51,230 bases of DNA. It comes from Thermodesulfovibrionales bacterium. Lineage in GTDB: Bacteria > Nitrospirota > Thermodesulfovibrionia > Thermodesulfovibrionales > UBA6898. Under the pieces are notes generated by a model. That model was not told the origin of the DNA and made no database searches. It saw only the letters and a program-made list of their open reading frames with translations. The position numbers were made by a program, and so were the translations under genes. The stretch is from assembly GCA_044450345.1 (NCBI GenBank), contig JBIOIY010000013.1, positions 1 to 51,230 of the forward strand. Reading direction: 5' to 3'. Shown piece by piece: positions 22,553 through 50,157 of the stretch; position 1 is the first letter of the stretch; every line of letters starts with the position of its first letter.

Positions 22553-22576
22553 GAGCGCATCGCCATGCGCCCCTAC
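22553..22576 (-). repeat. GTAG-type REP-like palindrome within coding sequence
   Basis: Minus strand GTAGGGGCGCATGGCGATGCGCTC. Confidence 0.65.
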
Positions 22577-22875: not shown

Positions 22876-23446
22876 CTTTTCCCGCAACTATTCCTATCGC
22901 AACAACATTCCCTGCTATTTGCGTATTAGTAACTGCTTCCGTGCCGTTCGGCGATATGAGTTCGATCTTCAGGGAATGCTCCTCTCCCATAGGCAATCCA
23001 TCTATTCCCGCTACGATCATATCCCCGTCCACTTTCAGAATCGGCCTCAGTCTCACCAGATACGCAGGTGTGTTGTCCAGCCCTCCATAGGAATCTATCG
23101 TCTCCTGGTCCTCAACCGTCTCGGGCTCATAGCTTAACGCAAATCTGATGGTTGGAGAGTTTCATTGTATTTACTGTAATGCTGAAGAGTTCGCTGTTAT
23201 TTTTATCGGCTGCCGTGAATCTCACTTTGTGCTTGAGTTCATCCGGTATTTCTGTGTATTCGCCCGTTATCCTCCTCTGCTCAAACTGCATGCTATTGGG
23301 AAGGATTTTCAATATATCGGGCATCAGGGTCCTTGTCATCATCAAGTCCGACGGCTGATACCCGGCGGCCGTCAGCTTTGTCTCCACATATTCGAGGGGC
23401 GTTTGTGTTTGGATAGCACTGAGGTATTCATTTCTTGCGATCAAGA

Positions 23447-23474
23447 GCTGACTGCTGACCGCTGATTGCTGAAA
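23447..23474. repeat. Four tandem GCTGANN heptamers within coding sequence
   Basis: GCTGACT GCTGACC GCTGATT GCTGAAA; encodes FQQSAVSSQ on the minus strand. Confidence 0.75.
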
Positions 23475-24181
23475 GATGTCCATCGGATTATTGTACGTGT
23501 AGCCTGTTCTCTTTATACTGGTATCCAACCCCAGCCAGATGGGGTCGCTGTCGTCTATGATCGCCCCGCGATAGTTGCCGTAAGGTATCCGGCTTTCTAT
23601 CCAGATGTGTTCCACCTGGAAGTTTGATATCTTGCCCCCTGCTATGATGGGGTTATAGGGGATACCGGCCTTTTGAAAGAACTCGGCAATCTTGCCAGGG
23701 TCGTCTATCCCCGTGAGGTTCTTTACCTTTTCTATAACGATGTTCTTTCCCCCGGCGAAGAACTCAATTGTCCCTCTCACGTATCTGGTCGGAAACCCCG
23801 ATGCTCGAAGCAGCGCGGCAAACAGCGTGCTTTGGTCACAGTCGTTTCCGGACTTCTGCTTCAATGTCTCCTCCGCCCCCTTCATACACCCCCAGTACCA
23901 GTCCGTCTCTATGTTGTTCTTTACGTATTCATAGATCAGCACAGGGTTCCAATTGAGAGACTGGGCAAGGGTACCCATCGCCTCCGATATGGGCGCTTCC
24001 TCTGTGCTCTGGGTATCATCAGGAGCGACGGACTTATTGCTGCCTTTGTATGCGGGTACTATTGGAGGGCTCTTGCCGGGTTGTGTCGCGGGATAATTAA
24101 GGTTCCTGTATGGGAGGCTGCCGATGATAGGTCTTTTGGTTTTGGGAAGGATTTGATCAAGAAGCGTTTTGAGGTCTTCGA

Positions 24182-24278
24182 TAACCCCCCTCAGTCCCCC
24201 CTTATCAGGGCGGGAAGCCTGATCGGGCGTATCGTTCTCCTCGGCGAATCCGCCCGGGTGCGGACCATACGCCCCTAC
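24182..24278. repeat. Composite repeat cluster: C-rich palindrome plus a GTAG-type REP interrupted by the 30-bp element
   Basis: TAACCCCCCTCAGTCCCCCCTTATCAGGGCGGG, then GGGCGTATCG[30 bp]CCATACGCCCCTAC. Confidence 0.75.
24235..24264 (-). mobile_element. 30-bp miniature dispersed element, copy 1
   Basis: Minus strand TCCGCACCCGGGCGGATTCGCCGAGGAGAA; 28/30 identical to each of the copies at 29390 and 39333. Confidence 0.75.
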
Positions 24279-24879
24279 AGTGTTTGCCGAGGACTGCAGG
24301 CTTTCAATCAGAGTCAGATATTCCGCAAGGGCCTTTTGATAACCCTCTTCCATGACCCTGTGCCTCTCCAGTGCCTTGGCCCCCCTTGTCTTTACGTCTT
24401 CTTCCCGTGCCCTGAACTTCTCCTGAAGCAATAGATGTGACGCCTTGATGTTTTCAGAGAGGGCCGTTAGTGTACTGATCTCTTTTTGACCAGAATCCCC
24501 TGCCTTGAGTTTCTCCCCCGCCCTCTCAAGTAGCGCTCTGCTTTGTTTGAGTTTCTCCTGGAGGTCCTTCTCTATGTCGTTATACGCTGCGAAACTCCGT
24601 GAGGAAAGCGGAAGCACAATCGCAATTATCAGGACCAGAAGCTTAACAATTCCCCTTGTCACTAACTCCCTCCAAATCAACGCACATCATTTACGATCTA
24701 CTTTAGTGATTTGTCCCCAGTATTCCCCACCTCGGAGGCGCACGCTAATAAATTAGCAGCAGACAGAAACGTTTGTCAATATCAAATTTTTGTTTGCCCA
24801 TTTTTCTTCATGCGTTAAATTCTTGCTCAAAGACCGCCCGATAGTGCAAAATATCAGTCAATTTTAGAATGGGAGAAGA

Positions 24880-25809
24880 ATGCCTGTACGGATAGGAGTC
24901 ATCGGTGTAGGGTACCTCGGACGGCACCATGCAAGGATATATTCAGAACTCAAAGACGCCGAGCTCATGGCCGTTGCCGATGCCGACTCAGGCAGAGCTG
25001 ATGAGATAGCCGGCACATACGGGTGCAGGTCTTTTTCGAAATATACTGACCTCTTTGCCTCCTGCGACGCGGTGAGCATTGTGACGCCGACGACTACGCA
25101 TTATGAGGTCGCGATGGATTGCCTGAGGGCGGGGAAGGACGTCCTGGTAGAAAAGCCGATAACCGCAGCTTTGGAGGAAGGTGAAGACCTTATTCAGGAG
25201 GCGGCGAAGAGAAACCTTATTCTTCAGGTGGGGCATCTCGAACGATATAACCCCGGGATAATAGCCGCATCAAAGATGATAAGGGAGCCCTGGTTTGTGG
25301 AGTCGGAGAGGCTCTCGCCCTTCCTGGGAAGAGGGATCGACGTGGACGTTACGCTCGACCTTATGATACACGATATCGACATCGTGATGAGCATAGTGCA
25401 GGCTAAATTGATAGATATCAGAGCGGTAGGAGAAAGCGTCCTCACGGAAAAGATCGATCTTGCGAAAGTGTGGCTGGAGTTCGAAAACGGATGCAAAGCC
25501 ATGATTACCGCAAGCAGACTCTCTCCCGAGAAGCAGAGAAGGTTGACGGTATTTCAGAAAGAATCCTTTGTGTCCGTGGATTACCAGAACCATGAAGTCA
25601 GGCGCTATTTCAAAAAAGGCCATGATATGTCCGTCGATGTCGTGAAACCGGAAAAAAAAGAACCCCTCATGGAGGAATTAAAAGACTTTATCCGTTGTGT
25701 CGAGACGAGGACGAGGCCCAAGGTATCGGGCCGCGAGGGGCTTGAGGCATTACGGGTGATACTGAAGATAAATGAGATGGTGAGCGATCGAATTCGTCCG
25801 GGACTTTAA
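24880..25809 (+). CDS. Gfo/Idh/MocA oxidoreductase, probable UDP-GlcNAc 3-dehydrogenase (GnnA-like)
   Basis: GVIGVGYLG, VLVEKP, VGHLERYNP, DLMIHDID; lies upstream of an aminotransferase and lpxB. Confidence 0.85.
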   Translation: MPVRIGVIGVGYLGRHHARIYSELKDAELMAVADADSGRADEIAGTYGCRSFSKYTDLFASCDAVSIVTPTTTHYEVAMDCLRAGKDVLVEKPITAALEEGEDLIQEAAKRNLILQVGHLERYNPGIIAASKMIREPWFVESERLSPFLGRGIDVDVTLDLMIHDIDIVMSIVQAKLIDIRAVGESVLTEKIDLAKVWLEFENGCKAMITASRLSPEKQRRLTVFQKESFVSVDYQNHEVRRYFKKGHDMSVDVVKPEKKEPLMEELKDFIRCVETRTRPKVSGREGLEALRVILKINEMVSDRIRPGL

Positions 25810-25835
25810 TAAATATATAATGGAGATAATGCGTC

Positions 25836-26927
25836 ATGATTGTGCCGATGGTAGACCTTAAAAAACAGTTTAATGACATAAAGGATGAAGTGTTCGAGAT
25901 GCTTACGGAGATCCTCGAAAGCTCACAGTATATTCTCGGTCCGAAGGTCCTGGAGCTCGAAAAAAAGATCGCCGAATACCACGGGGTGACCGAGGCGGTG
26001 GGCGTTGCTTCAGGAACCGACGCACTCCATCTTTCGATAGAGGCCCTTGGCATAGGTGAAGGTGACGAGGTGATCACTACTCCTTTTACTTTTTTTGCAA
26101 CGGCGGAAGCGATTCTCTATACCGGGGCGACTCCCGTGTTCGTCGATATAGAACAGGAAACCATGAACATCGACCCTGGAAAAATCGAAGCGGCGGTCAC
26201 TAAACGGACTAAGGCGGTTCTTCCGGTCCATATCTTCGGTCATCCTGCTGACATGGAGAAGATCGCGGCGGTGGCGAAGGAGCACAAACTTAAAATAATT
26301 GAAGATTGCGCCCAGTCATTCGGCGCCTCGGTACACGGCAAGAAGACCGGCAGTCTCGGAGACGCCGGGTGCTTCAGCTTCTACCCTTCCAAGAACCTCG
26401 GTGCCTTCGGAGACGGCGGGATGGTGCTTTTGAATGACCCCTCTGTAGCAGCCGATATACGGAAGCTGCGAAACCACGGCTCAAGAGGCTCTTACAGACA
26501 TGAGTCGGTCGGGTTTAACAGCAGGCTGGACGAGATCCAGGCGGGGGTGCTTTTGGTAAAGATGAAACGTATCGATGCGTACAATAATAAGAGAAGACAG
26601 AAGGCCGCTCTTTATGGAGAGCTTCTATCGGATAGGGTTGAACGCCCTGCGGAAAGACCCGGCTACACCCATGTGTATCATCAGTACACAATCAGAAGCA
26701 GCAGGAGAGATGAGATTCAGGTGCGTCTCCGCGAAAACAATATCTCTTCAGTCGTCTATTACCCTACCCCCCTGCATATCCAGGAAGCGGTGAATTTCCT
26801 GGGTTATAAAAAGGGGGACTTTCCGGTTGCGGAAGAGACTTCGGAAAGGGTCCTCTCCCTTCCCATGTATCCGGAACTGGAAGAAACGTCGATCGCCCGG
26901 ATTGCCGACATCATAAATAATGTCTGA
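25836..26927 (+). CDS. DegT/DnrJ/EryC1/StrS aminotransferase (GnnB-like)
   Basis: SGTDAL, IIEDCAQSFG, FSFYPSKNLGAFGDGG, GFNSRLDEIQA. Confidence 0.9.
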   Translation: MIVPMVDLKKQFNDIKDEVFEMLTEILESSQYILGPKVLELEKKIAEYHGVTEAVGVASGTDALHLSIEALGIGEGDEVITTPFTFFATAEAILYTGATPVFVDIEQETMNIDPGKIEAAVTKRTKAVLPVHIFGHPADMEKIAAVAKEHKLKIIEDCAQSFGASVHGKKTGSLGDAGCFSFYPSKNLGAFGDGGMVLLNDPSVAADIRKLRNHGSRGSYRHESVGFNSRLDEIQAGVLLVKMKRIDAYNNKRRQKAALYGELLSDRVERPAERPGYTHVYHQYTIRSSRRDEIQVRLRENNISSVVYYPTPLHIQEAVNFLGYKKGDFPVAEETSERVLSLPMYPELEETSIARIADIINNV

Positions 26928-28059
26928 GACCGCCATGATCGTTACCGGGGAGACCTCCGGCGAGTTATACGGCTCGCTGCTAGCGGTCTCGCTGAGAAAA
27001 AGGGTCCCCGGCATCAGGATAATCGGCATAGGCGGTGAAAAGATGAAAGAGGCAGGTGTCGAACTCATATCAGGTATCGCGAGCGCGTTCGGACTCGCCG
27101 AGGCTGTTTCTTCCCTTCGCGCGATAAAGGAGACTTTCGCGAAAGCCTCAGAGGCCCTTATTACAGAGAGGCCGGGGGTGCTCGTCCTGATAGATTACCC
27201 TGATTTTAATCTTAAGCTCGCCTCTCTCGCAAAGAAGAAAAAAATAAAGATACTGTATTATGTGAGTCCGCAGGTCTGGGCCTGGAGAAGAAACAGGACA
27301 AAAAAAATAGCCCGTCTGGTCGATAAGATGGCGGTAATACTCCCCTTTGAAGAGGAGCTATACAAAGACACCGGCCTTGAGTGCGAGTTTGTAGGGCACC
27401 CGGTGTTTGACGAGATACAGGGAATGAAGGCCGACAAAGATGCAGAAAAGGAGGCATTGGGCCTGCAGAGAGAACGCCCCCTGCTTTCATTGCTGCCGGG
27501 CAGCAGGCCGCACGAACTTGCAAGGCTTTTGCCGTTGACGCTTGATGTGGTAAGGCGGTCCAGGCAAGAATTCCCCTCTTTCCAGTTTTGTGTACCACTG
27601 GCGCCTAACACGCATTTGGCCGGTCATAGCAAGGTCATAGACGATCTGAAACGGGAAGGGGTTGTCATCAATAAAGGGGAATCGCTGAGGGCCCTGGCGG
27701 CGTCCGATATGGCTGTGATCGCCTCGGGGACAGCGACACTGCAGGCTGTGCTGCTCGGTATACCTTTTGTGGTGATGTATAAGCTTTTCCCTTTGACTTA
27801 CTGGCTTGGAAAGATGATTGTGAGAGTGAAACATATTTCCCTTGTGAATATTCTATCGGGACGCGAGGTCGTAAAAGAGCTCCTTCAGGCCGATGCCTCA
27901 CCGGAGAAGATAATCCATGAGCTGCGGAGGATCACGACCGACATTGCGTACAAGGATAAAATGATCGAGGCCTTCGGCAGGGTCAGGGAAATGTTTTCGG
28001 GCAAGAGCGCCTCCGAAAGAGTGGCAGATATCGCAATCGAGCTGGCGGGATGGAAGTAA
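26920..28059 (+). CDS. lpxB: Lipid-A-disaccharide synthase
   Basis: GETSGELYG, IDYPDFNL, YVSPQVWAWR, FVGHP, LLPGSR, SGTATL. Confidence 0.97.
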   Translation: MSETAMIVTGETSGELYGSLLAVSLRKRVPGIRIIGIGGEKMKEAGVELISGIASAFGLAEAVSSLRAIKETFAKASEALITERPGVLVLIDYPDFNLKLASLAKKKKIKILYYVSPQVWAWRRNRTKKIARLVDKMAVILPFEEELYKDTGLECEFVGHPVFDEIQGMKADKDAEKEALGLQRERPLLSLLPGSRPHELARLLPLTLDVVRRSRQEFPSFQFCVPLAPNTHLAGHSKVIDDLKREGVVINKGESLRALAASDMAVIASGTATLQAVLLGIPFVVMYKLFPLTYWLGKMIVRVKHISLVNILSGREVVKELLQADASPEKIIHELRRITTDIAYKDKMIEAFGRVREMFSGKSASERVADIAIELAGWK

Positions 28060-28071
28060 GTAGGGGTTGAT

Positions 28072-29304
28072 ATGTTCCTTGTCTATAGTCTGCTTTATGC
28101 GGTTGCGGTTTCGATTTTATTCATACCTGAATATCTAAAGCGTTCTAAAGAGCTCAGGAAAAGATGGCTTAGGGAGAAGTTCGGGTACCTGCCTGACGTG
28201 AAGTCTGCTATATGGGTCCATGCCGTCTCCGTAGGTGAGGTCAACGCATCTATCGGGCTTCTCAAAAAATTAAGGGCCGAATACCCGCAATCTCCTCTGA
28301 TACTTTCGACAATCACGGATACAGGGCAGAAAGTCGCGCTGGAAAAGGCACCCGAAGGGACAACGGTGGTATATCTCCCCTTCGATTTGATATACATATT
28401 GGACCGCGGTTTTCGGAGGGCCATGCCCCGTCTATTCCTGGTTATGGAGACCGAGCTCTGGCCGAATATTTTCAGGACGCTCGCCGGCCGCAGAGTTCCT
28501 GTTCTGATGCTCAACGGCAGGATATCTGAGAAGTCCGCTGCAGGGTACAGGAAGATCTCATTTTTTATGAAAAAGGTCTTTTCCTGCGTCAGCGTATTCG
28601 GCATGCAAGGCCAGGTCGATGCAGATAGAATAAGGTATATCGGGGCTGAGAAGACGAAGATCACGGTGCTGGGAAATTTTAAGTTTGATATGGAGATGGC
28701 CTGCGCAATCCCCGACTGGGCCCAGTCCATGGGGGGGCCCATCGTTGTTGCCGGCAGCACACACAAGGGAGAGGAAGAGCTGATTCTGGCGGCCTACTCG
28801 GAAAACAAAGAATTTTCCCCTGAGCTGAAACTGATACTGGCGCCAAGACACCCGGAGCGTTTTGAAGAAGTGGCAGACATGCTTAAGAAGAGCGGCATCC
28901 AGTACACGAAGCGGACCGAAATCAAAGATCTAAATATCTCGGGGGTGTCTGTTATTCTTCTTGACACGGTGGGTGAGTTGTCTTCTGTATACGCGGCCGC
29001 CGATATAGCGATTATGGGAAAAAGCTTTGAAGGGGTAGGAGGGCAGAATCCTCTTGAGCCTGCTTATTGGGGGAAACCTATTATCTGCGGCCCTCATATG
29101 GAGAATTTTCCTTTTATAAAAGATTTTTATCGTGAAGGCGCGGCCTTCGAAGTTGAAGCAACAGCCATCTCTAAGAAGATAAAGGAACTACTTCTTGCCC
29201 CTGATAAGGCGAGGTCGGCAGGCCGAAAGGCGAAAGAGATTTACTTAATGAATTCGGGTGCGGTCGAGCGGGCGATGGATATTATCAGGAAATATCTGGG
29301 GTAA
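28072..29304 (+). CDS. waaA: 3-deoxy-D-manno-octulosonic acid transferase
   Basis: WVHAVSVGEV, METELWPN, GSTHKGEE, APRHPERF, GGQNPLEPA. Confidence 0.96.
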   Translation: MFLVYSLLYAVAVSILFIPEYLKRSKELRKRWLREKFGYLPDVKSAIWVHAVSVGEVNASIGLLKKLRAEYPQSPLILSTITDTGQKVALEKAPEGTTVVYLPFDLIYILDRGFRRAMPRLFLVMETELWPNIFRTLAGRRVPVLMLNGRISEKSAAGYRKISFFMKKVFSCVSVFGMQGQVDADRIRYIGAEKTKITVLGNFKFDMEMACAIPDWAQSMGGPIVVAGSTHKGEEELILAAYSENKEFSPELKLILAPRHPERFEEVADMLKKSGIQYTKRTEIKDLNISGVSVILLDTVGELSSVYAAADIAIMGKSFEGVGGQNPLEPAYWGKPIICGPHMENFPFIKDFYREGAAFEVEATAISKKIKELLLAPDKARSAGRKAKEIYLMNSGAVERAMDIIRKYLG

Positions 29305-29330
29305 GGGATATTCTTTTTCCCTCTTTCTCA

Positions 29331-29446
29331 GTAACGCCCCCGGCCTTCCGCCTCGGCGGATCGCATGAGGAGATCGGCCGCCCCCTCTTTCCGCACCCAG
29401 GCGGATTCGCTGAGGAGAAAAGATAAGAGGGGGATAGGGGGAGTTA
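29331..29446. repeat. Palindromic repeat (inverted counterpart of 29623-29672) carrying two nested insertions
   Basis: GTAACGCCCCCGGCC[variant]..CCCCCTCTT[30 bp]AAGATAAGAGGGGGATAGGGGGAGTTA. With the inserts removed it closely matches the reverse complement of 29623-29672. Confidence 0.75.
29390..29419 (+). mobile_element. 30-bp miniature dispersed element, copy 2
   Basis: TCCGCACCCAGGCGGATTCGCTGAGGAGAA. Confidence 0.75.
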
Positions 29447-29532
29447 TGATCCCGGAGGGGCGTGGGAAGATTTGACTTTCTCCTTGACAGAAGCCTCTCA
29501 AAATATCCACAATTCTGAGGGGATGAAGATAT

Positions 29533-29625
29533 ATGACCGGCATTGATGCATTCAGAGAAAAACTTCAGGTCCTGGTCTCCAAGTTCGAGAAGGACAATAT
29601 CGGGCGGATGAAATTAATAAAATAA
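29533..29625 (+). pseudogene. Short N-terminal gene remnant, possibly of a Type IIG restriction-modification enzyme
   Basis: GAGGGG SD, then MTGIDAFREKLQVLVSKFEKDNIGRMKLIK*. The family call rests only on recalled resemblance. Confidence 0.35.
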
Positions 29626-29672
29626 CTCCCCCTCGCCCCCTCTTAACCTAAGAGGGGGATGGGAGGCGTTAC
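29623..29672. repeat. Palindromic repeat immediately upstream of the DUF559 gene
   Basis: TAACTCCCCCTCGCCCCCTCTTAACCTAAGAGGGGGATGGGAGGCGTTAC; core stem CCCCCTCTTA/TAAGAGGGGG. Confidence 0.8.
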
Positions 29673-29682
29673 AGTAAATCGA

Positions 29683-30069
29683 ATGAAATTCACATTGAAT
29701 GATCCGTTGCAAAAACAGCGGAGAAAGGAATTGAGACATAATCAGACAGAGGCTGAAAAAGCCCTTTGGCTGCATATACGGAACAGACAGTTTTGCGGAA
29801 AGAAATTCTATCGTCAGTACAGCGAGGGTCCTTATATCCTCGACTTCTACTGCCCGCAAATGAAACTCGCAGTAGAATTGGACGGCGGACAACATGCCTG
29901 TGATGAAAACAGGGAATATGATGCTGCCCGTACAGACTACCTGAAAGCCTTGGGGATCGAAATATTGCGGTTCTGGAATCATGAAGCGCTTAACAATACA
30001 GATGACGTCTTAGCCAGGATGGCAGTTAAGATAGAGAGAGAGAGATTACGATTACGCACGGAAAAATAG
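29683..30069 (+). CDS. DUF559 (Vsr-like) endonuclease domain-containing protein
   Basis: RKELRHNQTEAEKALW...KFYRQ...YILDFYC...AVELDGGQH...YDAART...ILRFWN. Start at ATG 29683 is inferred. Confidence 0.92.
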   Translation: MKFTLNDPLQKQRRKELRHNQTEAEKALWLHIRNRQFCGKKFYRQYSEGPYILDFYCPQMKLAVELDGGQHACDENREYDAARTDYLKALGIEILRFWNHEALNNTDDVLARMAVKIERERLRLRTEK

Positions 30070-30142
30070 ATTGCGTATGGATTGTTCGGGGAAACATTAA
30101 AATTGAAAAGCTTTTATGTAAAATAAGAGCAATGAGGCAGCT

Positions 30143-30385
30143 ATGAAAGAGGCCCTTCAGCATATGATAAAGGCGTACATCCGAAAAGGCGAAAAATATT
30201 ATGTTGCCGAATGCCTTGAAATCCCGGTTGTCACTCAAGGCAAGACTCTGGATGAAGCAGTTGCAAACCTTAAAGAGGCAGTTACACTTCATCTAGAAGG
30301 GGAAGATCTTGAGCAATTAGGTCTCGCACCGAATCCGACTTTGATTATCACCATGGAGACGGAGCCCGTAGAAAGTGTCGCCTAA
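30143..30385 (+). CDS. HicB family antitoxin
   Basis: YVAECLEIPVVTQGKTLDEAVANLKEAVTLHLE. Confidence 0.85.
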   Translation: MKEALQHMIKAYIRKGEKYYVAECLEIPVVTQGKTLDEAVANLKEAVTLHLEGEDLEQLGLAPNPTLIITMETEPVESVA

Positions 30386-30417
30386 ATTATTAAAGCAACT
30401 CGCAAGTATCAAATAAT

Positions 30418-31443
30418 ATGCACCTTCTTGAATTCCTATATTATCTCGGTTTTTCGGTCAAACAATATTATTCCGTCGTACATCAAAAACGCCTGCCGTG
30501 CAGGGTGATCAGCATAGGCAACATAACTGTCGGCGGTACGGGCAAAACACCGGCAACGATTGCTGTTGCAGAGGAGGCCCGAAAAAGGGGCATGAGACCT
30601 GTCATTCTTACACGCGGATATAAGGGCAAGGCAAAGGGTCCTTGTTTTGTAACGAAGGGGAAGGGGCTGCTGCTTTCTATCGAAGACGCCGGTGACGAAC
30701 CTGTTCTCATGGCTGAGAGGCTGGACGGGGTGCCAATTATAAAGGGAGGCAACAGGTTCGAGGCAGGCATGTTTGCCATTCGGGAATTGCCTATCGGCGA
30801 ATCGGAATTCGACACATATGTCTTCATCCTGGATGACGGGTTCCAGCACAGGGGTCTTTACAGGGACAAGGATATTGTCCTCATCGATGCAGGAGACCCT
30901 TTCGGAAACGGGATGCTTCTTCCCTTTGGCAGGTTGAGGGAACCGGTAAAATCCCTGTCACGTGCCGATATTGTCGTTTTAACAAAGGCCGGGAGCAAGA
31001 CCGGCCAGGGAGAACTTTGCGGAATTGACATCCTGAGAGAGAAGATAAATAGGTATAAGGAGAAATCAAGGGTCTTTCTCTCCGACCATATCCCTGTATC
31101 ATGCGTACTTTCTTCAGGCCGGGAGAACCCCGCGGACTGGCTTTCCGGGAAGAAGGTCTTCGTGTTTTGCGCCCTTGGATCACCGGACTCTTTTCTACGG
31201 ACCCTGTCGGGGTCAGGCGCCGATATCCGCGGACTTCGCGCTTACAAAGACCATCATCAGTATACCCAGGAAGACATATCCAGGATAAAAACCGAGGCTG
31301 AAGGGCGCGGCGCAGAGTGGATTGTTACCACGGAAAAAGATATAATAAAAGCCAGAAATCTTGATTTGCCGGACAATATCTCGGTAGTCAAGGTCGTTTT
31401 TGCTGTGAGCGACGACTTTTATGACGAGGTGTTTGGTCCCTAG
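30418..31443 (+). CDS. lpxK: Tetraacyldisaccharide 4'-kinase
   Basis: SIGNITVGGTGKTP, LTRGY, GDEP, LDDGFQH, LLPFGRLREP, TTEKD. Confidence 0.97.
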   Translation: MHLLEFLYYLGFSVKQYYSVVHQKRLPCRVISIGNITVGGTGKTPATIAVAEEARKRGMRPVILTRGYKGKAKGPCFVTKGKGLLLSIEDAGDEPVLMAERLDGVPIIKGGNRFEAGMFAIRELPIGESEFDTYVFILDDGFQHRGLYRDKDIVLIDAGDPFGNGMLLPFGRLREPVKSLSRADIVVLTKAGSKTGQGELCGIDILREKINRYKEKSRVFLSDHIPVSCVLSSGRENPADWLSGKKVFVFCALGSPDSFLRTLSGSGADIRGLRAYKDHHQYTQEDISRIKTEAEGRGAEWIVTTEKDIIKARNLDLPDNISVVKVVFAVSDDFYDEVFGP

Positions 31444-31470
31444 GCATTTGTCCTTCCCGGGAGGAAAAGG

Positions 31471-31881
31471 GTGGTAAGGTACATAAACGTAAAGAGCAGG
31501 GCCAGGACCGAGTTCGTCGACATCACAGAGAAGGTCCAGGAGGTTGTAAAAGAGGCCGGTGCAGTCAGCGGAATATGTTTTCTTTATGTGCCGCATACTA
31601 CGGCTGCAGTCACGATAAACGAGGGCGCCGACCCAAGCGTACAGCGTGATATCCAGGCGCTTTTGAACAGGCTTGTCCCCTTCGAAGGCGATTACCACCA
31701 CAGGGAAGGAAATTCTTCCGCCCACATCAAGGCTTCCATGATAGGCATATCAGAGAGCGTCCTTATTGACGACGGCAGGTTGGTCCTCGGCACCTGGCAG
31801 TCGATTTTTTTCTGCGAGTTCGACGGCCCCCGGCACAGGAGGGTGGCCCTTAAATTCATAGGCGATAAAAAGGGCACATAG
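31471..31881 (+). CDS. yjbQ: YjbQ (UPF0047) family protein
   Basis: PHTTAAVTINE, HREGNSSAHIK, LGTWQSIFFCEFDGPR. Confidence 0.93.
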   Translation: MVRYINVKSRARTEFVDITEKVQEVVKEAGAVSGICFLYVPHTTAAVTINEGADPSVQRDIQALLNRLVPFEGDYHHREGNSSAHIKASMIGISESVLIDDGRLVLGTWQSIFFCEFDGPRHRRVALKFIGDKKGT

Positions 31882-31932
31882 CAGCCAGAATCTTTTTTCC
31901 CACTTCCCGATGTCCCGGAGGGCGTGTGAATT

Positions 31933-32760
31933 ATGTCTGAAGACAATACCTTCGACGAACTCTCCTATCTGAGAAATGAGGTCAAGCGACTCAGGCATTC
32001 CCTGAACGTTCTTACCCCGAGGCTGGGTGTGATCCTGAAAAGACGGGGATTTCCTGTTTACAAAAAGGAACCCGGGGACGACCTCCTGGTTCCTGCGGAG
32101 AATTTTTTGGATGAGTATTACAGTATGCTCCATAAGTATTCGTTCCGCCTCTTTCTCCGCGATGTGATAAAACATCAGGATTTTTTTACCCTTGACAAGG
32201 TGACCAGGTATGCCACGTCAGGAGTCACCGGAGAATATATCGAATATGTCCGGCAGATCGGCCTAACAAGAAAGCTTGACTCGGGATTCGCCCTTGGCCG
32301 TCATATCAAGAGTTTCGGGGAGACACTCGAATGGTTTGTCGCGGAGGTCTTTAAAAGGGAATTCGGCGTAGAGGCGATGTGGGGAGTAAAATTCAAAAGG
32401 CCGAATGTAGGCGGGGATTACGATGTGATCGCCAAGCTCGACGGGTCCCTATTATATGCCGAGGTGAAGTCTTCACCCCCGAAACAGATATATGACAGTG
32501 AAATATCGGCCTTTCTTGACAGGGTAGCGGACCTTGCGCCTGAGATTTCGGTATTTTTTATGGACACGGAGCTCAGGATGAAGGACAAGATAGTGCCGAT
32601 GTTTGAAGAGGAGCTCAAAAAAAGGGCATCCTCCCCGCCGGAAGTAATGCGGATCGAAAAAGAACTCTTTCAGATAAGGGACAGAATATTTATAATAAAC
32701 TCCAAAGACAGCATTGTCCGTAATCTTGAAACGGCGCTGAACTGGTATTTGAGGAGGTAG
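31933..32760 (+). CDS. Hypothetical protein with a C-terminal PD-(D/E)XK-like motif
   Basis: FGETLEWFVA...GDYDVIA...YAEVKS. Confidence 0.7.
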   Translation: MSEDNTFDELSYLRNEVKRLRHSLNVLTPRLGVILKRRGFPVYKKEPGDDLLVPAENFLDEYYSMLHKYSFRLFLRDVIKHQDFFTLDKVTRYATSGVTGEYIEYVRQIGLTRKLDSGFALGRHIKSFGETLEWFVAEVFKREFGVEAMWGVKFKRPNVGGDYDVIAKLDGSLLYAEVKSSPPKQIYDSEISAFLDRVADLAPEISVFFMDTELRMKDKIVPMFEEELKKRASSPPEVMRIEKELFQIRDRIFIINSKDSIVRNLETALNWYLRR

Positions 32761-32917
32761 GTTGAAAAAAGATATTGACCTTGAAAGGCATTTTTGGGCC
32801 TTTAAAAATAGTATCATATAGTTCGTAATGTTGCCGAAAAACGGGTATAATATCCGAGTAAAATCCCGACAAATCCTATAGGTATATATTCCTAAAAGAA
32901 TTCATGAGGAGGGTCGT

Positions 32918-34270
32918 ATGAGCATGCAGGAGTTAAGGAAAGTTATCACGGTCGGCAAAGAAGGTATCGAGATAAAGGACCGTAAGGCCCTTTCCGCCTT
33001 GATGGATGGACTTATCTATGAGGCGGTCTTTTCCGATGAAGAGAGGAAGAAAAAGCTCTTGCTTTTCGTTAAGGAAGTCGCAAAGGCTTATGGTGCGGTC
33101 CCTGCATCCATCCAGGGCCTGTACGAAGAGATGGGTAAGAACTATCCCGGGTTTACCGTGCCTGCAATGAATATAAGGGGTCTGACCTATGATTCGGCCA
33201 GAGCTGTTTTCAGAAAGTCTCTTGAAATGAAGGCCGGCGCCTTTATTTTCGAAATCGCCCGTTCCGAAATAGGATATACCAAGCAGAGGCCTCTGGAATA
33301 TGCTGCGGTGGTGCTCGCTGCGGCTGTCCGGGAAGGTTATAGGGGACCTGTTTTTTTACAGGGCGATCATTTCCAACTGGTCAGGAAGAATTTTCTGGGT
33401 GATCCTGCAGCAGAAACAGGCTATGTGAAAGGACTTATTCAGGAGGCGGTAGAGGCCGAATTTTATAATATCGATATCGATTCATCCACCCTGGTCGACC
33501 TAGACAAACCTACGATAAAGGAGCAGCAACGGCCGAATTTCGAAAAGACAGCCGAACTCGCCGTCCTTATAAGAGAGATCCAGCCGAAGGGTATCGATGT
33601 CTCCGTGGGTGGGGAGATTGGAGAGATCGGGAAGAAGAACAGCACGCCCGATGAACTTAAAGGCTATCTTGACGGGTTCAGGGAGACCTTTAAAGGCGGG
33701 AAGGGATTGAGTAAGCTCAGCGTCCAGACCGGAACATCTCACGGCGGGGTTGTCCTTCCCGACGGCACCCTCGCGAAGGTGAAGATAGATTTCGAAACGC
33801 TCCGCCTGTTATCGGATGTCGCGAGAAAGGAATACGGCCTATCCGGTGCTGTTCAGCACGGAGCGTCCACCCTCCCTGAAGAGGCATTTCACATGTTCCC
33901 TGAAACCGGTACGTCGGAGGTGCATCTTGCAACGGGTTTCCAAAACATCATCTATGACAGCAAACATCTGCCTGCCGCTTTCCGGGAAGAGGTATATGAC
34001 TACATCAAGACGGAATTTGCAAAGGAAAAGAAGGAAGACCAGACAGAAGAGCAGTTTATTTACAGCACCAGGAAAAAGGGCTTCGGCACTCTCAAGAAGA
34101 AGTGGTGGGACCTGCCTTCGGACATTAAGAGGCCCATCATGAAGGAGCTTGAGGATAAGTTCGGCCTGCTCTTCGACAAGCTGAAGGTCGGCAATACTGT
34201 AGATATAGTCCAAAAGACGGTCAAGCCCATTGTTGTGAAAAAGGAGATCGACCCGTCCATTCTCGGATAG
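32918..34270 (+). CDS. Class II fructose-bisphosphate aldolase family protein (long, divergent)
   Basis: VPAMN, LQGDH, DIDSS, GEIGEIG, GTSHG and VQHGAS metal-binding motifs. Confidence 0.85.
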   Translation: MSMQELRKVITVGKEGIEIKDRKALSALMDGLIYEAVFSDEERKKKLLLFVKEVAKAYGAVPASIQGLYEEMGKNYPGFTVPAMNIRGLTYDSARAVFRKSLEMKAGAFIFEIARSEIGYTKQRPLEYAAVVLAAAVREGYRGPVFLQGDHFQLVRKNFLGDPAAETGYVKGLIQEAVEAEFYNIDIDSSTLVDLDKPTIKEQQRPNFEKTAELAVLIREIQPKGIDVSVGGEIGEIGKKNSTPDELKGYLDGFRETFKGGKGLSKLSVQTGTSHGGVVLPDGTLAKVKIDFETLRLLSDVARKEYGLSGAVQHGASTLPEEAFHMFPETGTSEVHLATGFQNIIYDSKHLPAAFREEVYDYIKTEFAKEKKEDQTEEQFIYSTRKKGFGTLKKKWWDLPSDIKRPIMKELEDKFGLLFDKLKVGNTVDIVQKTVKPIVVKKEIDPSILG

Positions 34271-34385
34271 GCTGTTCGGTCCCGCAAAATAGGACTGAGA
34301 ACGAAGGGATTTCCAAAACTTCCTTTTTTACCCCTTTCTTTTCGTAATTTATTGACACTACATGGACATATACCATAGCAGTTAA

Positions 34386-34415
34386 CTTGACAACAACTGA
34401 CTAAGGTTATATTAT
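34386..34415 (+). promoter_or_regulatory. sigma70 promoter of dnaJ-hspR-clpB overlapped by a HAIR-like operator
   Basis: TTGACA (34387), 17 nt, TATTAT (34410). CTTGACA-N7-ACTAAGG matches 10/14 positions of HAIR CTTGAGT-N7-ACTCAAG. Confidence 0.6.
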
Positions 34416-34453
34416 ATGACAAATAGTTAAATTAAATTGCTAAAGGGGTGGGT

Positions 34454-35548
34454 ATGTCTCCACAAGTAAAGGATTATTACGAGATACTCGGCATTGACAG
34501 AAAGGCCTCACAAGAAAACGTAAAGAAGGCATACAGGAAGCTGGCGCGCAAATATCATCCTGACCTCAACCCCGGCGACAAGTCCGCCGAACATAAATTC
34601 AAAGAACTTAACGAAGCCTATGAAGTGTTAGGCAACGAGAAAAAGAGGGCTGAATACGACCAGTATGGACGTTCGCCTTCCGAAGGCGGCGGCCCGGGAT
34701 TTGATTATAGGGCATATACGTCAGCAGACAGGTTCGATTCCAGTGGTTTCGGAGACATTTTTTCCGACTTGTTCGGTGCCGGCGGCAGCCCCGGGGCCGC
34801 GGGACTGAAGGGTCCCGACCTTGTTATGGGACTCGAACTCTCTCTTGAAGAGGCGTTTACAGGCGTCACTGAACCGATTTCGTTTACAAGGGAAATGCAG
34901 TGCACTGCCTGCGGCGGCTCGGGTGCCGAGACCTATCAGCAATGCGACAGTTGTAAAGGGACTGGAAAAGTCCAGACGTCCAAGGGTTTCTTTAAGATGT
35001 CCCAGTACTGTACCGCCTGCGGCGGCTCCGGGAAAAAGATAACAAAGGCATGCAGGTCCTGCGCCGGACGGGGAAAGATCGTGCATCCGGAGTCCATCAA
35101 GGTAAAGATACCCGCAGGCGCTGATACGGGTTCGCGTGTAAGGTTAAAAGGAATGGGTGGTCCCGGGCAGGGAGGGGGACCTCCCGGCGACCTGCAGATA
35201 GAAATTACTGTGCGTGAACATCCTGTATTCAAAAGGACAGGCGATAATATCTACGTAGAAGTGCCGGTCACGTTCGGTGAGGCTGCGCTGGGAGCAAAAA
35301 TAGAGGTGCCGACTTTGGACGGTGCCTCTGCGATGACGCTTCCTGCAGGCACACAAAGCGGCCAGAAATTCAAACTATCAGGGAAAGGTTTTCCCTCCAC
35401 TCGCACCGGCAAGAGAGGGGACCAATTCGTTACTATCAAGATCGCCGTGCCGAAGAACGTCACGGACAAGGCGAGGCACGCTATACATGAAATAGAGACC
35501 CTTTACAGGGAATCTCCGCGGAAGGGGATGATTAGGACCAATGAATAA
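34454..35548 (+). CDS. dnaJ: Molecular chaperone DnaJ
   Basis: DYYEILG, KYHPD, G/F region, four CxxCxGxG repeats, C-terminal domain. Confidence 0.95.
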
Positions 35549-35888
35549 AAAAGACAGGAAACAACCCCTATATCTCATAAGCGTTGTGTCCGAGATGCTG
35601 AGGGTGCATCCTCAGACCTTACGGCTATATGAAAAGGATGGCCTCATTACCCCCAGGAGAACGAAAAAACAGAGACTCTATTCAGAGAACGACGTGGAAA
35701 GGCTTAACTTCATATTGCAGCTGACAAGGGAGATGGGCGTGAACAAGGCCGGCGTGGACATTATTCTGAGGATGCGTCACAGGATGGAGGTCATGCAGGA
35801 GGAGATGGAGGAGATGATGGGTCTTCTTGAGGAAGAGATGAGAAGAGATTTCAAGGAAAGGCTGAAGAAGGCATTGCGTGAAGACTAA
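35541..35888 (+). CDS. hspR: MerR-family heat-shock repressor, HspR-like
   Basis: [21 protein letters not shown]...RLYS...GVNKAGV; lies between dnaJ and clpB. Confidence 0.82.
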
Positions 35889-35894
35889 GGAGGT

Positions 35895-38540
35895 ATGATG
35901 GACAAGTTTACTATAAAAAGCCAGGAGGCGATACAGAAAACGCAGACGCTTGCCGAGAGGAAAGGCCACCAGCAGATCGAAGTCGAACATCTAATGTGGG
36001 TATTGCTTGACGACGCTGAAGGCGTTGCATTTCAGATCCTGAAACGGGTGGGGGCAAACACAGAGGCCCTGCAAAAAGACATCGAAGAGGTTATCGACAA
36101 GATGCCGAAGATCGTCGGCGCAACGCCGCTCGGACAGATCTATATCTCTCCCAGGTTGAAAGAAGTCTTTGGTAGGGCAGAAAAGGAGGCCGGGCATCTA
36201 AAGGATGAATACGTCAGTGTCGAGCACCTCCTGTTGGCTGTTCTCTCAGAAGGAGGCCCTTCATCTGACCTTCTCAAGAGATACGGCGCAGACGCTACGA
36301 AGATATTGACCGCGATGCGGGAGATTAGGGGAACTCAGAGGGTGACTGACCAGAACCCCGAGGAAAAGTACCAGGCGCTGAAGAGGTATAGCAAGGATCT
36401 TACTGAACTAGCGGCAAAGGGGAAACTCGACCCGGTTATCGGAAGAGACGAAGAGATAAGGAGGGTAATACAGGTCCTCTCCAGGAGGACAAAGAACAAC
36501 CCTGTCCTTATCGGCGACCCCGGTGTAGGGAAAACCGCTATCGCGGAAGGCCTTGCGCAGCGTATAGTTGCGGGTGACGTGCCTGAGACCCTCAAAGAAA
36601 AGAAGGTAGTATCCCTCGATATGGGGTCTTTGGTTGCGGGATCGAAATTCAGGGGAGAGTTTGAAGACAGGCTTAAAGCGGTGCTTAAGGAGATTGAGGA
36701 ATCGGAAGGCAGGATAATTCTTTTCATCGACGAGCTCCACACATTGGTCGGGGCGGGCGCTGCAGAGGGAGCGATAGACGCTTCCAACATGCTTAAGCCG
36801 GCATTGGCCAGAGGAGACCTGAGATGTGTAGGCGCGACTACGGTGGCCGAATACAGAAAATATATAGAGAAGGACAAGGCCCTCGAAAGACGCTTCCAGC
36901 CGGTATTAATAAAAGAGCCCCCCGTCGAAGACACAATATCCATACTGCGCGGGCTAAAGGAGAGATACGAGGTCCATCACGGGGTAAAGATCAAAGACGC
37001 GGCCCTTATTTCAGCGGCGGTGCTTTCCCACCGGTACATCACGGACAGGTTTCTCCCGGACAAGGCGATAGATCTGGTGGATGAGGCCGCTTCAAAGCTC
37101 AGGATGGAGATAGACAGCATGCCCGTAGAACTGGATGAGATCGAACGGAAGCTCAGACAATTAGAGATAGAAAGACAGGCCATGATGAGGGAGGACTCCA
37201 GGGAGTCGGAGGACAAACTCGAAAAGCTGAAACGCGAAATGTCCGAACTCCAGGGGAAACGGGACGAGTTAAGGGCCCAGTGGCTGTCCGAAAAGGAAAT
37301 CATCGCACGTATCCGAGAGGTGAAGGGAGAGATTGAAAAGACTAAGATAGAGTCGGAAAAGGCCGAACGGGAGGGAGACCTGACAAAGGCGGCCGAGCTC
37401 AGATACGGCAGACTTCTTGAACTCCAGAAATCTCTCGAAGGAGAGAACGAGAGGTTGGGCGAGGCCCAGAAGAAGAGAAAGATGCTCAAGGAAGAGGTCG
37501 ACGAAGAAGATATCGCCCAGGTCGTATCCAAATGGACCGGCATCCCGGTGTCCAAGATGCTTGAAGGAGAGGTCCAGAAGCTGCTCTATATGGACGAACG
37601 GCTGAGGATGAGGGTAGTCGGCCAGGACGAGGCGATAGAGGCAGTCTCCAACGCCGTAAGGCGGGCAAGGGCTGGGATCCAGGACCCTAACAGACCGATA
37701 GGCTCCTTCATCTTTTTAGGGCCGACCGGCGTCGGCAAGACAGAACTTGCGAGGGCACTGGCGGAGTTCCTCTTCGACGATGAAAATGCGATGATAAGGA
37801 TCGATATGTCGGAGTATCAGGAGCGGCATACGGTTTCAAGGCTGATCGGCGCGCCTCCCGGGTATGTCGGGTACGAGGAAGGCGGGCAGCTGACCGAGGC
37901 GGTAAGGAGAAGGCCCTATTCAATCGTTCTCTTTGACGAAGTTGAAAAGGCCCATCCGGAAGTCTTCAACCTTCTGCTCCAGATGCTCGACGACGGCAGG
38001 CTTACCGACAGCCATGGAAAGACAGTCGATTTCAGAAATACAGTGGTGATCATGACGTCGAACCTAGGCAGCGTGCACATCCGGGAGATGCTCGCAGAGA
38101 AGGAAAAGAGCCCCTTTGCATACTGGGTGGACAACACGGACGCTACCTTCAAGGAGAAGGTGATGAATGACCTCAAGGCGTTCTTCAGGCCTGAATTCCT
38201 GAACCGGGTGGACGAGGTCATTATCTTCAACCCGCTTACTAAGGGACTTCTCAAACAGATCGTCGAGATTCAAGTCGACAGGATGAAGAAATATATAAGG
38301 GAGAAGAACATCGACCTCACCCTGACGGAGGGCGCGAAAGAATATTTTGCGGCAATCGGGTTCGATCCGATCTACGGAGCGCGGCCGTTGAAACGGGTCC
38401 TTCAGAAAATGATCCTGAATGAGCTTGCCAAGAAGATCCTCGATGGAACGTTTACCCAGGGCGATACGGTAGAAGTAGATTGCCGGGGAGGTCAGGTCCT
38501 CTTTACTAAGGCCGTGACCGCTGAGATGACCCGGTTGTAA
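35895..38540 (+). CDS. clpB: ATP-dependent chaperone ClpB
   Basis: Two AAA+ modules ([16 protein letters not shown]) and a long coiled-coil middle domain. Confidence 0.97.
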
Positions 38541-38550
38541 GTCTTTCCGT

Positions 38551-38586
38551 GCAGGAAGGGGCTGCGCACCCCTTCCTGCTCTTTTT
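38551..38586 (+). terminator. Intrinsic terminator after clpB
   Basis: GCAGGAAGGGG-loop-CCCCTTCCTGC stem followed by TCTTTTT. Confidence 0.85.
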
Positions 38587-38709
38587 GCCATGTCCCGGCC
38601 GGGACTTCAACTGCGCCTGGGGTTGTGCGGGCTTCTCCGCTTTCAAACAGAACAATTTTATGTGGTATAATTTCAGAATAATTTTGACATTCTCTGTCAG
38701 GAGGAAAGA

Positions 38710-39189
38710 GTGAGCAAGCCGGAAGATAAAGATAAAGATGTTGAATCATTGGAAGAGTCACTTGAAGGATACAAGGGCAAGATTATGCCCGTGAATAAGG
38801 GGTCTCTTATATGGGACAAGGACCTGATATTTGTTGCGAGGACCCAGCGCGGGTATGAAATCGAATTCGATGCGCAGGCACAATGGGGTTGCATCCCTAC
38901 CGAGAGCCTCTTATTGAGTGTTGCCGGATGCATGGCAATCGACGCGGTATCTTTTCTCCAGAAGATGAAGTGCGTGATCTCGAAGTTCAAGATCGATATC
39001 GCCGGGGAGAGAAACCCGACCCCGCCCCAATACTACAAAAAAATCGATATGCTCATCCATATCTCGGGAGAAAACATCACACCAAAAAAGATGGAACGGG
39101 TCATCGCGCTGTCTCAGGAAAAATACTGTTCGGTGTACCACTCTCTGAGGAAAGACCTGGAAGTAAAAGTCGGCTACGAGATCGAATAA
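38710..39189 (+). CDS. OsmC/YhfA family protein
   Basis: PTESLLLSVAGCMAID...EKYCSVYHSL. Confidence 0.88.
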   Translation: MSKPEDKDKDVESLEESLEGYKGKIMPVNKGSLIWDKDLIFVARTQRGYEIEFDAQAQWGCIPTESLLLSVAGCMAIDAVSFLQKMKCVISKFKIDIAGERNPTPPQYYKKIDMLIHISGENITPKKMERVIALSQEKYCSVYHSLRKDLEVKVGYEIE

Positions 39190-39332
39190 AGCCCTGAACC
39201 CGGAAAATACAATTATTGCAGGGACACGTTCCAAAAAACTTTATAATGTCGCAACGTGGATACGTATGGATCAAATGTCCTAATAAAAGTATGAGGTATT
39301 TTTGAGTGTAGAAGGTCTTTATAAAGGTGGCG

Positions 39333-39362
39333 TCCGCGCCCTGGCGGATTCGCCGAGGAGAA
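39333..39362 (+). mobile_element. 30-bp miniature dispersed element, copy 3
   Basis: TCCGCGCCCTGGCGGATTCGCCGAGGAGAA; a GC-rich stretch within AT-rich intergenic DNA. Confidence 0.75.
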
Positions 39363-39432
39363 CAGATAAAGATTTTTTTACACATATCCCTGCAATATTC
39401 TATTGTGAATGCATTTTTCGGATGAAAGGGTT

Positions 39433-50132: not shown

Positions 50133-50157
50133 GGGGCGTATCGCAATACGCCCTTAC
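50133..50157. repeat. REP-like palindrome (GTAG family variant), intergenic
   Basis: GGGGCGTATCGCAATACGCCCTTAC; same stem as the host repeat at 24225-24278. Confidence 0.7.

Follow-up and report, generated by a model that had tools for sequence, protein, structure and literature searches.

A 30-bp noncoding repeat of Thermodesulfovibrionales with fixed ends and preferred insertion at hairpin tips is probably a nonautonomous mobile element

Introduction

The HUH/Y1 enzymes of the IS200/IS605 family act on elements that have subterminal hairpins and no terminal inverted repeats, and they work through single-stranded DNA intermediates without target duplication. The two ends of IS200/IS605 elements are different hairpins, insertion takes place 3′ of a fixed tetra- or pentanucleotide, and a strand bias tied to replication is seen. 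Rickettsia palindromic elements (RPEs) measure ∼100 to 150 bp and are thus much longer than the element described here. In 2008, Elhai et al. reportedly described small dispersed repeats (SDRs) of Nostocaceae, which are without coding capacity and nested in other short repeats.

A passage of one later paper gives SDRs as “some 20 bp long” and as repeats that “might be mobile” (PMC2884548), while a passage of another reports no SDR-like repeat outside Nostocaceae in HIP1-rich cyanobacteria (PMC5861425). In T. roseum, GTAG-23 repeats lie within CCGSSCC(n3,4)GGSSCGG palindromes, hundreds of which are empty targets (Di Nocera et al. 2013, PMC3733652), and part of the same paper describes REP-type repeats inside ORFs as well as in-frame RPEs.

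Here we analyze a 30-bp repeat in a genome of the Thermodesulfovibrionales (the source genome, G000; 3.19 Mb, 86 contigs, 51% G+C). The window, meaning the whole stretch of 51,230 nucleotides that was analyzed, is contig C13 of this genome; positions in it are given as plain numbers and other positions as contig:position. A first-pass annotation of the window had proposed a nonautonomous mini-element that targets other repeats. Many unrelated sites have received the element as one discrete unit of 30 bp whose ends are fixed, and we consider it likely to be a nonautonomous 30-nt mobile DNA element that inserts precisely, prefers hairpin tips as targets, and is moved in trans by an enzyme. Empty sites, 42 unrelated flank contexts from dozens of genomes, and an enrichment of insertion points at hairpin apices all support the earlier proposal.

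A 30-bp repeat with fixed ends

The following copies were identified in the window:

24235–24264, minus strand: element copy 1, 30 bp, exact match to the degenerate 30-mer
29390–29419, plus strand: element copy 2, 30 bp, exact match to the degenerate 30-mer
39333–39362, plus strand: element copy 3, 30 bp, exact match to the degenerate 30-mer

These are the copies of the first-pass annotation, and they were recovered as exactly three matches to the degenerate 30-mer, all with zero mismatch, whereas 0 of 100 dinucleotide shuffles gave a match. Neither is the repeat confined to the window, since a search of the whole source genome returned 3, 10, 17, and 18 matches at 0, 1, 2, and 3 substitutions, respectively. 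The number was still 18 at 4 to 6 substitutions, and the 30-mer family is therefore sharply bounded. A looser hairpin-plus-tail pattern also yielded a diverged 28-nt copy at C2:44508 and two copies of a 27-nt relative (C13:29347 and C46:10652). Three of the 18 copies fall within 15 kb (24235 to 39362) and in three different hosts, which by rough estimate is more clustered than random placement.

A 5-bp stem (positions 1 to 5 with 12 to 16) closes a variable loop of 6 nt, and the remaining 14 nt form a nearly invariant tail, TTCGCYGAGGNGAA. The element starts with TCCGC or CCCGC, ends with GAGGNGAA, and has no coding capacity. Comparison of its ends (TCCGC... and ...GAGAA) bore out the annotated absence of terminal inverted repeats. 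Across 111 copies with unique flanks, positions 2 to 5, 11 to 15, 17 to 18, 23, 26, and 28 to 29 were invariant or nearly so, and variation was found at loop positions 6, 8, and 10 and at positions 22 and 27. The annotated 5′ TCCGC/GCGGA hairpin stands in part. In its favor, pair 1/16 was T/A in 94 copies, C/G in 16, and C/A in 1, under a search pattern that admitted all four combinations; this covariation amounts to one compensatory change that marks a subfamily and may thus be a single event. On the other side, the stability of the hairpin alone is unremarkable (−4.8 kcal/mol; z, −0.8), and a competing GGCG/CGCC stem overlaps the 5-bp stem.

Similarity among copies ended exactly at the 30-bp ends across 42 contexts. 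Old orthologous copies (C2:44508 and one on C19 of genome G001) have diverged about as far as their own flanks. This decay suggests that conservation of the element reflects continued propagation from competent copies and not selection on each copy.

Filled and empty sites

Copy 1 splits the 4-nt loop of a tagged palindrome:

24225–24278, minus strand: GTAG-tagged REP-like palindrome hosting copy 1, GTAG-GGGCGTAT-N4-ATACGCCC

The orthologous stretch in G004, a genome of the same genus, is 83 to 91% identical, and its sole internal gap over 300 aligned bases corresponds to 24235–24264. The empty site reads GGACGTATTG|CCATACGCCCCTAC, with a gap of exactly 30 bp, so the site that had been rebuilt on paper by deleting copy 1 exists as an orthologue. 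No base slides across either boundary of copy 1, and hence its ends are unambiguous and nothing was duplicated at the target. The host family has ∼14 clean members in the source genome, with loops of 3 to 4 nt and in many cases a preceding GTAG, and a long interior was found in the copy 1 host only. Since no other palindrome of this family in the source genome is filled, gene conversion between paralogues cannot explain copy 1. The first-pass annotation had also matched this palindrome to two others in the window; the one at 50134 is a clean family member, but that near 22553 is merely a diverged relative. A contig from metagenome run X2 spans copy 1 in the filled state.

Copy 2 lies in a nested arrangement of repeats:

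29332–29446, plus strand: composite nested repeat with copy 2; outer stem TAACGCCCCC/GGGGGAGTTA, inner module, and H1 with the element
29347–29373, plus strand: 27-nt relative of the element; TCCGCC-loop-GGCGGA plus TCGCATGAGGAGA, inside hairpin GGCCT|TCGGCC
29381–29433, plus strand: H1, host hairpin of copy 2; arms CCCCCTCTT (29381–29389) and AAGAGGGGG, loop AAGAT
29623–29671, minus strand: second, empty copy of the H1 composite in the opposite orientation; loop AACCT

The element sits between the 5′ arm of H1 and the AAGAT loop. With exact arms (CCCCTCTT-x-AAGAGGGG), H1 occurs 27 times on the scanned strand of the source genome, and its interior measures 5 nt in 15 cases and 35 nt (element plus AAGAT) in 11, the remaining one being a 37-nt artefact that spans two hairpins. 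Five empty copies bear precisely the AAGAT/ATCTT loop predicted by deletion of copy 2, as the first-pass annotation had supposed. Empty twins include C1:132994, C10:31543, C8:26887, which is a full composite without the element, and C11:20113, the empty counterpart of C46:17002. Filled and empty forms of H1 pair with every variant of the neighboring module in this genome, and C10:42136 is without both the element and a 21-nt palindromic module. Altogether, 14 of the 18 copies in the source genome occupy the same position of one ∼115- to 125-bp nested composite (outer stem TAACGCCCCC/GGGGAGTTA, inner palindromic module, and H1), which folds as nested hairpins at −30.8 kcal/mol (z, −3.3). The hairpin around the 27-nt relative likewise has an empty form, GGCCTTCGGCC, at C46:17015, C11:20113, and C45:9792.

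Copy 3 lies in the loop of a terminator-like hairpin, TCTTTAT...ATAAAGA, which is followed by a T run and belongs to a larger unit:

39196–39424, plus strand: MITE-like unit carrying copy 3, 229 bp; inverted TTGCAGGGA/TCCCTGCAA near the ends and a terminator-like end

The unit also has promoter-like TTTATAAT / AAAAACTTTATAAT sequences and could be a mobile small-RNA gene. Relatives were found once each in six other genomes. Five members, found in five other genomes, are empty; their sequence, AAAGGTGGCG|CAGATAAAGA, has a gap of exactly 30 bp. They contrast with three filled ones (G000:C13, G000:C2, and G001:C19), in which the element occupies the same phosphodiester bond. The unit itself varies between strains. 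A contig of run X1, from a near-identical strain, skips exactly 39196–39424, meaning that the whole unit is absent, and in four genomes of the same genus the genes flanking this spot are 5 to 19 bp apart, with the unit absent. In a contig of run X7, 39200–39362 is replaced by nine letters, and ..GGCGGCG joins straight to 39363, at the right boundary of the element.

No duplicated base was found in the empty/filled comparisons for the hosts of copies 1, 2, and 3. Precise insertion without target duplication, as first annotated, is thus upheld by an orthologous empty site (G004) for copy 1 and by paralogous empty sites for the hosts of copies 2 and 3.

Copies in coding sequences

ORF 23127–24680 (minus strand), which encodes a transglutaminase-like protein of 517 aa, stays open through copy 1. 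As had been expected from a length divisible by 3, the insertion keeps the frame, and it adds ten codons (..GPHPGGFAEEN..). In genome G041, a CobQ-like ORF of 547 aa is open across an antisense copy together with its host hairpin. The element is tolerated in coding DNA because 30 is a multiple of 3 and because it is open in the frames used. In-frame peptides are thereby put into real genes by the element and its host hairpins, which matters for the annotation of these MAGs.

Beside copy 1, more palindromic repeat material was identified at 24186–24224 of the same minus-strand ORF, namely, GATAACCCCCC..CCCCCCTTATC and a GATCAGGC..GCCTGATC pair. Its conservation in G004 indicates that the N-terminal region of the transglutaminase-like protein is partly built from repeats. 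A membrane-protein family, compared between C36:17700–19100 of the source genome (L196) and paralogues on G004:C7 and G005:C24, has one variable spot between conserved segments. What fills it differs from paralogue to paralogue: the element with a small hairpin, an H1-like composite, or another purine/pyrimidine palindrome, unless the spot is empty. When orthologues of the sites at C15:35298 and C36:18415 were compared, either similarity ended before the site or the site fell in a paralogous family with differing repeats.

Target sites

The 111 unique flanks formed 42 context clusters, the hosts being unrelated in sequence. For each flank the element was removed and the joined 30 + 30 nt were folded as DNA; a junction was scored as apical when a hairpin of ≥4 bp had its apical loop no more than 1 bp away. 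By this measure 64/111 flanks and 24/42 clusters were apical, compared with 562/3,000 random positions of the source genome (19%), a threefold enrichment. With zero tolerance, the apex was hit in 45/111 flanks versus 298/2,000 random positions and 136/817 controls from the same loci. The annotated insertion at or near the loops of host hairpins is therefore a strong preference but not a rule, as 18 of the 42 clusters were nonapical by the 1-bp, ≥4-bp criterion. Several of these lie in repeats that resemble the element itself (a hairpin plus TCGCYGAGGNGA), where the CCCGC subfamily is found between TCGCY and GAGG. Host arms include, among others, CCCCTCTT/AAGAGGGG, CCCCCTTT/AAAGGGGG, CCTCCCTTT/AAAGGGAGG, CTCG/CGAG, CCCG/CGGG, GGGCGTAT/ATACGCCC, and TCTTTAT/ATAAAGA.

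The flanks are typically pyrimidine rich on the 5′ side and purine rich on the 3′ side, with no fixed target word. The 5′ flank avoids A (1 to 3 of 42 contexts at each of positions −4 to −1), and the 3′ flank has A at +1 in 24/42, A at +2 in 27/42, and G at +3 in 25/42. A GATA in the 3′ flank, remarked on for all three copies in the window, proved coincidental, as it occurred within 7 nt in only 4/42 independent contexts. At the CTT|AAG step of H1-type hairpins both orientations of the element were found (source genome copies versus L118).

Distribution among genomes

At least 115 element loci were identified when one genome per species was scanned. Among 80 matches listed, almost all were in MAGs labelled Thermodesulfovibrionales, Thermodesulfovibrionia, Nitrospirae, or “Candidatus Sulfobium,” and two were labelled otherwise; no cyanobacterial title appeared among these 80 of at least 115. 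The element was carried by 17 of 41 relatives at ≤2 mismatches and by 44 of 301 genomes of the class at ≤1 mismatch, and a reversed-pattern control gave 0 matches in every genome of both sets. Positive genomes were concentrated in three families of the order (f1, 15/35; f11, 12/14; f12, 11/35), with few or none elsewhere (f6, 0/54; f10, 0/15; f3, 0/16; f8, 0/18; f18, 3/50). Viral contigs returned 0 matches.

Copy number reached 62 in G043 and 42 in G042, and G250 and G003 are element rich as well. The G042 copies form two internally uniform subfamilies that are distinguished by four linked differences (positions 1, 16, 22, and 27), and the CCCGC subfamily always lies within one larger repeat. 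Many G043 copies are within one terminator-like unit. Because most copies are passengers of larger repeats, copy number overstates the number of insertion events. The element is real, well bounded, restricted to a lineage, and mostly hitchhiking.

Relative to the upstream gene, 28 of 45 intergenic copies had the same orientation, 16 the opposite, and 1 was without a call, a weak bias under crude ORF calling; the same crude calls placed 17 further copies inside ORFs.

Search for a mobilizing enzyme

A family scan of the 41 relatives identified Y1_Tnp genes in 31 and gave no Y1 match in G001, G004, and G012, though the element is present in these three. The source genome has three Y1 genes, namely, an IS200-like gene on C38 (143 aa) and RAYT-like genes on C32 (223 aa) and C77 (140 aa). 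Nothing resembling the element was seen in the flanks of the C38 gene, and the two RAYT-like genes adjoin other inverted repeats, which for C77 is a GGGGCGCAAT/ATTGCGCCCC palindrome. Homologues of the 223-aa protein, the one of the three that the class-wide profile took in, were found in 191/301 genomes of the class, including families with no or few element copies (f6, 33/54; f18, 34/50). This gene (C32:15835–16503; L206:233–904, minus strand) lies between its own 18-bp inverted repeats, TAGGGACACATCCCATTT, and copies 81 to 87% identical occur in genomes of families f5, f6, and f12, which suggests its recent horizontal spread.

An autonomous partner was also sought between close copies at 12 loci of G041, G042, and G043, where crude ORF calls gave housekeeping-looking ORFs only and no transposase. 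When the DUF559-like ORF beside copy 2 was used as a query, it matched its own gene and one weak, split sequence on C8 of the source genome, with no recurrent linkage. A nuclease or transposase gene consistently flanked by the element, which the first-pass annotation had suggested looking for, was thus found at none of the loci inspected, and the Y1 genes show neither linkage nor codistribution with it. GC skew gave no strand bias, with 9 of 18 source genome copies on the G-rich strand, a small sample made up mostly of passengers.

Contigs of four metagenome runs were compared over 23800–39700, again following an earlier suggestion to look for filled and empty alleles in reads, and no polymorphism limited to the element was seen among them.

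Mode of spread and alternative explanations

The data support the view that a very small noncoding element that inserts precisely in other palindromic repeats must be moved in trans. Insertion takes place preferentially at the apical loop or the loop-stem junction of preexisting hairpins (REP-like palindromes, nested repeats, and terminator-like hairpins), after which most copies multiply passively as passengers of the host repeat. In the mechanism we favor, a trans-acting enzyme would recognize the hairpin of the element and its single-stranded tail, cut exactly at both ends, and ligate the element into DNA that is single stranded because it lies at the tip of a hairpin. The nearest analogue for this step is the HUH/Y1 chemistry of IS200/IS605 TnpA and of RAYTs, and its participation here is suggested tentatively, by analogy. 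The HUH/Y1 link drawn in the first-pass annotation holds as far as anatomy goes, given the hairpin, the single-stranded tail, the lack of duplication, and targets prone to be single stranded. It fails the expectations for IS200/IS605 because the element does not have two ends, inserts at no fixed target word, and shows no strand bias, and neither linkage nor codistribution lends it support. It is conceivable, and we put it no more strongly, that the element is a structure-directed, ultra-small single-stranded DNA transposon for which one hairpin and a 14-nt tail would suffice, with arbitrary hairpin tips as targets and an enzyme other than a classical IS200/IS605 TnpA or RAYT. That enzyme might belong to a new subtype of HUH proteins, or it might be a nuclease/ligase or templating activity of another sort, and if this reading is true, its identification would also explain the movement of orphan mini-repeats such as single REPs and cyanobacterial SDRs.

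Explanations other than a mobile element were also weighed. A motif selected by the host, whether a protein-binding DNA site or an RNA module, and spread by recombination or gene conversion would account for the high conservation of the 30-mer across three families of an order, for the many copies in terminator-like units followed by T runs, and for the mild orientation bias toward the upstream gene (28 versus 16); moreover, gene conversion between similar arms could spread the 30-mer in H1-type hairpins. Against this, the 42 contexts are unrelated and include unique coding sequence, the element is found in either orientation with respect to both genes and host hairpins, old orthologous copies have decayed in step with the sequence around them, no Rfam family was matched, and for copy 1 there is no conversion donor, since no other member of its REP family in the source genome is filled. 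We therefore regard a host-selected motif as unlikely. A little less likely again, it seems, is template-directed synthesis: a polymerase or reverse transcriptase would start from a nick in a hairpin tip and copy a dedicated 30-nt template, the break would then be sealed, and each new copy would thus match a master template. The exact length, the lack of target duplication, and the hardly constrained target sequence would all follow from it, as would the striking uniformity of copies within a genome with genome-specific subfamilies, and transposase linkage is absent at paired copies. However, uniform copies are equally expected from a recent transposon burst and from passenger amplification, and no template locus or associated polymerase has come to light. 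Least credible is an origin of the 30-mer from something longer, either as the solo remnant or footprint that a larger element left behind (an IS end or a recombined terminal repeat) or as a segment of a known RNA that extends beyond it. Similarity ends exactly at the 30-bp ends in 42 contexts, paired copies have no IS-like gene between them, and neither Rfam nor viral contigs gave a match; although copy 3 and many copies in other genomes do lie inside larger repeats, such repeats exist without the 30-mer too.

Comparison with described systems

A scan of the whole window against Rfam 15 at gathering thresholds identified only a tRNA, and permissive Rfam scans around copies 2 and 3 gave chance-level matches only (E value, ≥0.8). 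The element thus matches no Rfam family, and the first-pass annotation had recognized no named family in it. Literature searches found no description of it, and it therefore seems to be undescribed.

Several known classes were considered and rejected. A tagged, RAYT-associated REP was rejected, as the element has no GTAG or CGTC and no GTAG at flank positions −4 to −1; the tag seen at copy 1 belongs to the host palindrome and not to the element. A REPtron, with a RAYT gene between repeat copies, was set aside on the location of the source genome RAYT-like genes beside other inverted repeats and on the three Y1-less genomes (G001, G004, and G012). A MITE derived from a DDE transposase disagrees with the absence of both terminal inverted repeats and a target site duplication. 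In place of the two distinct subterminal hairpins of an IS200/IS605-derived miniature, the element has one 5-bp stem with the overlapping GGCG/CGCC alternative, and in place of a fixed 4- to 5-nt target word it has a Y-rich|R-rich tendency, with 9/18 copies on the G-rich strand in a small sample of mostly passengers. IS200/IS605 elements proper thus differ from it in that it has one hairpin, no fixed target word, and no skew bias.

Closer precedents are found among smaller repeats. Like the REPs in target palindromes (PMC3733652), the element is a small stem-loop repeat inside the loops of other small palindromes, but those REPs are tagged with GTAG or CGTC, GTAG often being near a RAYT, whereas it has neither a tag nor a linked RAYT. 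REPs and REPINs are, in the relevant passages of one paper, short palindromic nonautonomous repeats thought to be moved in trans, without duplication, by a domesticated Y1 (HUH) enzyme (PMC3116915); what is proposed to move in those passages is a REP doublet (REPIN), and REPs flank the RAYT gene, unlike the single 30-nt units found here. RPEs, as treated in part of PMC3733652, resemble it as palindromic repeats lying in frame within genes that stay open, but it adds only 10 codons, usually together with a host hairpin. The likeness to the SDRs of Nostocaceae, drawn from citing passages (PMC3116915, PMC5861425, and PMC2884548), is that these are “very small mobile repeated elements” with no known enzyme; they differ in host (Cyanobacteria versus Nitrospirota) and probably in sequence from an element of 30 nt with a hairpin and a conserved 14-nt tail. 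The element is SDR-like, being a dispersed ∼30-nt repeat that is present or absent in identical contexts, nested, and without duplication. We conclude that it represents a new family of very small mobile repeats, REP/SDR-like, with REPs in target palindromes and SDRs as precedents, the SDR comparison being based on citing passages.

The entry of very short repeats, single REPs and SDRs among them, into new sites has long been an unsolved problem, since sites that show a clean state before and after insertion are rare. Such sites are available in the family described here. Its ends are fixed at 30 bp, one of its empty sites is orthologous, its targets are numerous and independent, its subfamilies coexist, and some genomes have 40 to 60 near-identical copies. 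It is thus well suited to a search for the enzyme by phyletic profiling and to a simple in vitro test. Also of note for the annotation of these MAGs, the element with its host hairpins decorates hairpins of the terminator-like kind and gives rise to indels between strains.

Other short repeats and a variable spacer near copy 2

Other mini-modules were identified around the element. The 27- to 28-nt relatives (window 29347–29373, C46:10652, and C4:134404) share its architecture, with a GC hairpin plus TCGC-N-GAGGAGA, and two of them are inside the tetraloop hairpin GGCCT|TCGGCC, the empty form of which is known elsewhere. A host repeat in other genomes, CTCGCCTCGGCGAG-TCGCYGAGGNGAC, has an element-like architecture and is itself a target. 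The composite also occurs both with and without the 21-nt palindromic module, CCTGCCTGCCGGCAGGCATGG, at AGGCTC|CGCCT (C10:42136 versus C10:802 and others), and other mini-modules of the source genome thus also behave as discrete insertions. A palindrome akin to this module was found inside the 3′ arm of H1 at C9:1777.

A short contig that joins 29378 to 29636 probably derives from another repeat copy and was set aside. In contigs of runs X1 and X7, window positions 29308–30417, the whole spacer between the kdtA-like and lpxK-like genes, are replaced by 191 other letters. This spacer holds two composite repeats and an ORF of 136 aa (29659–30069) that is DUF559/Vsr-like, and it has the look of a variable cassette with H1 composites at its borders.
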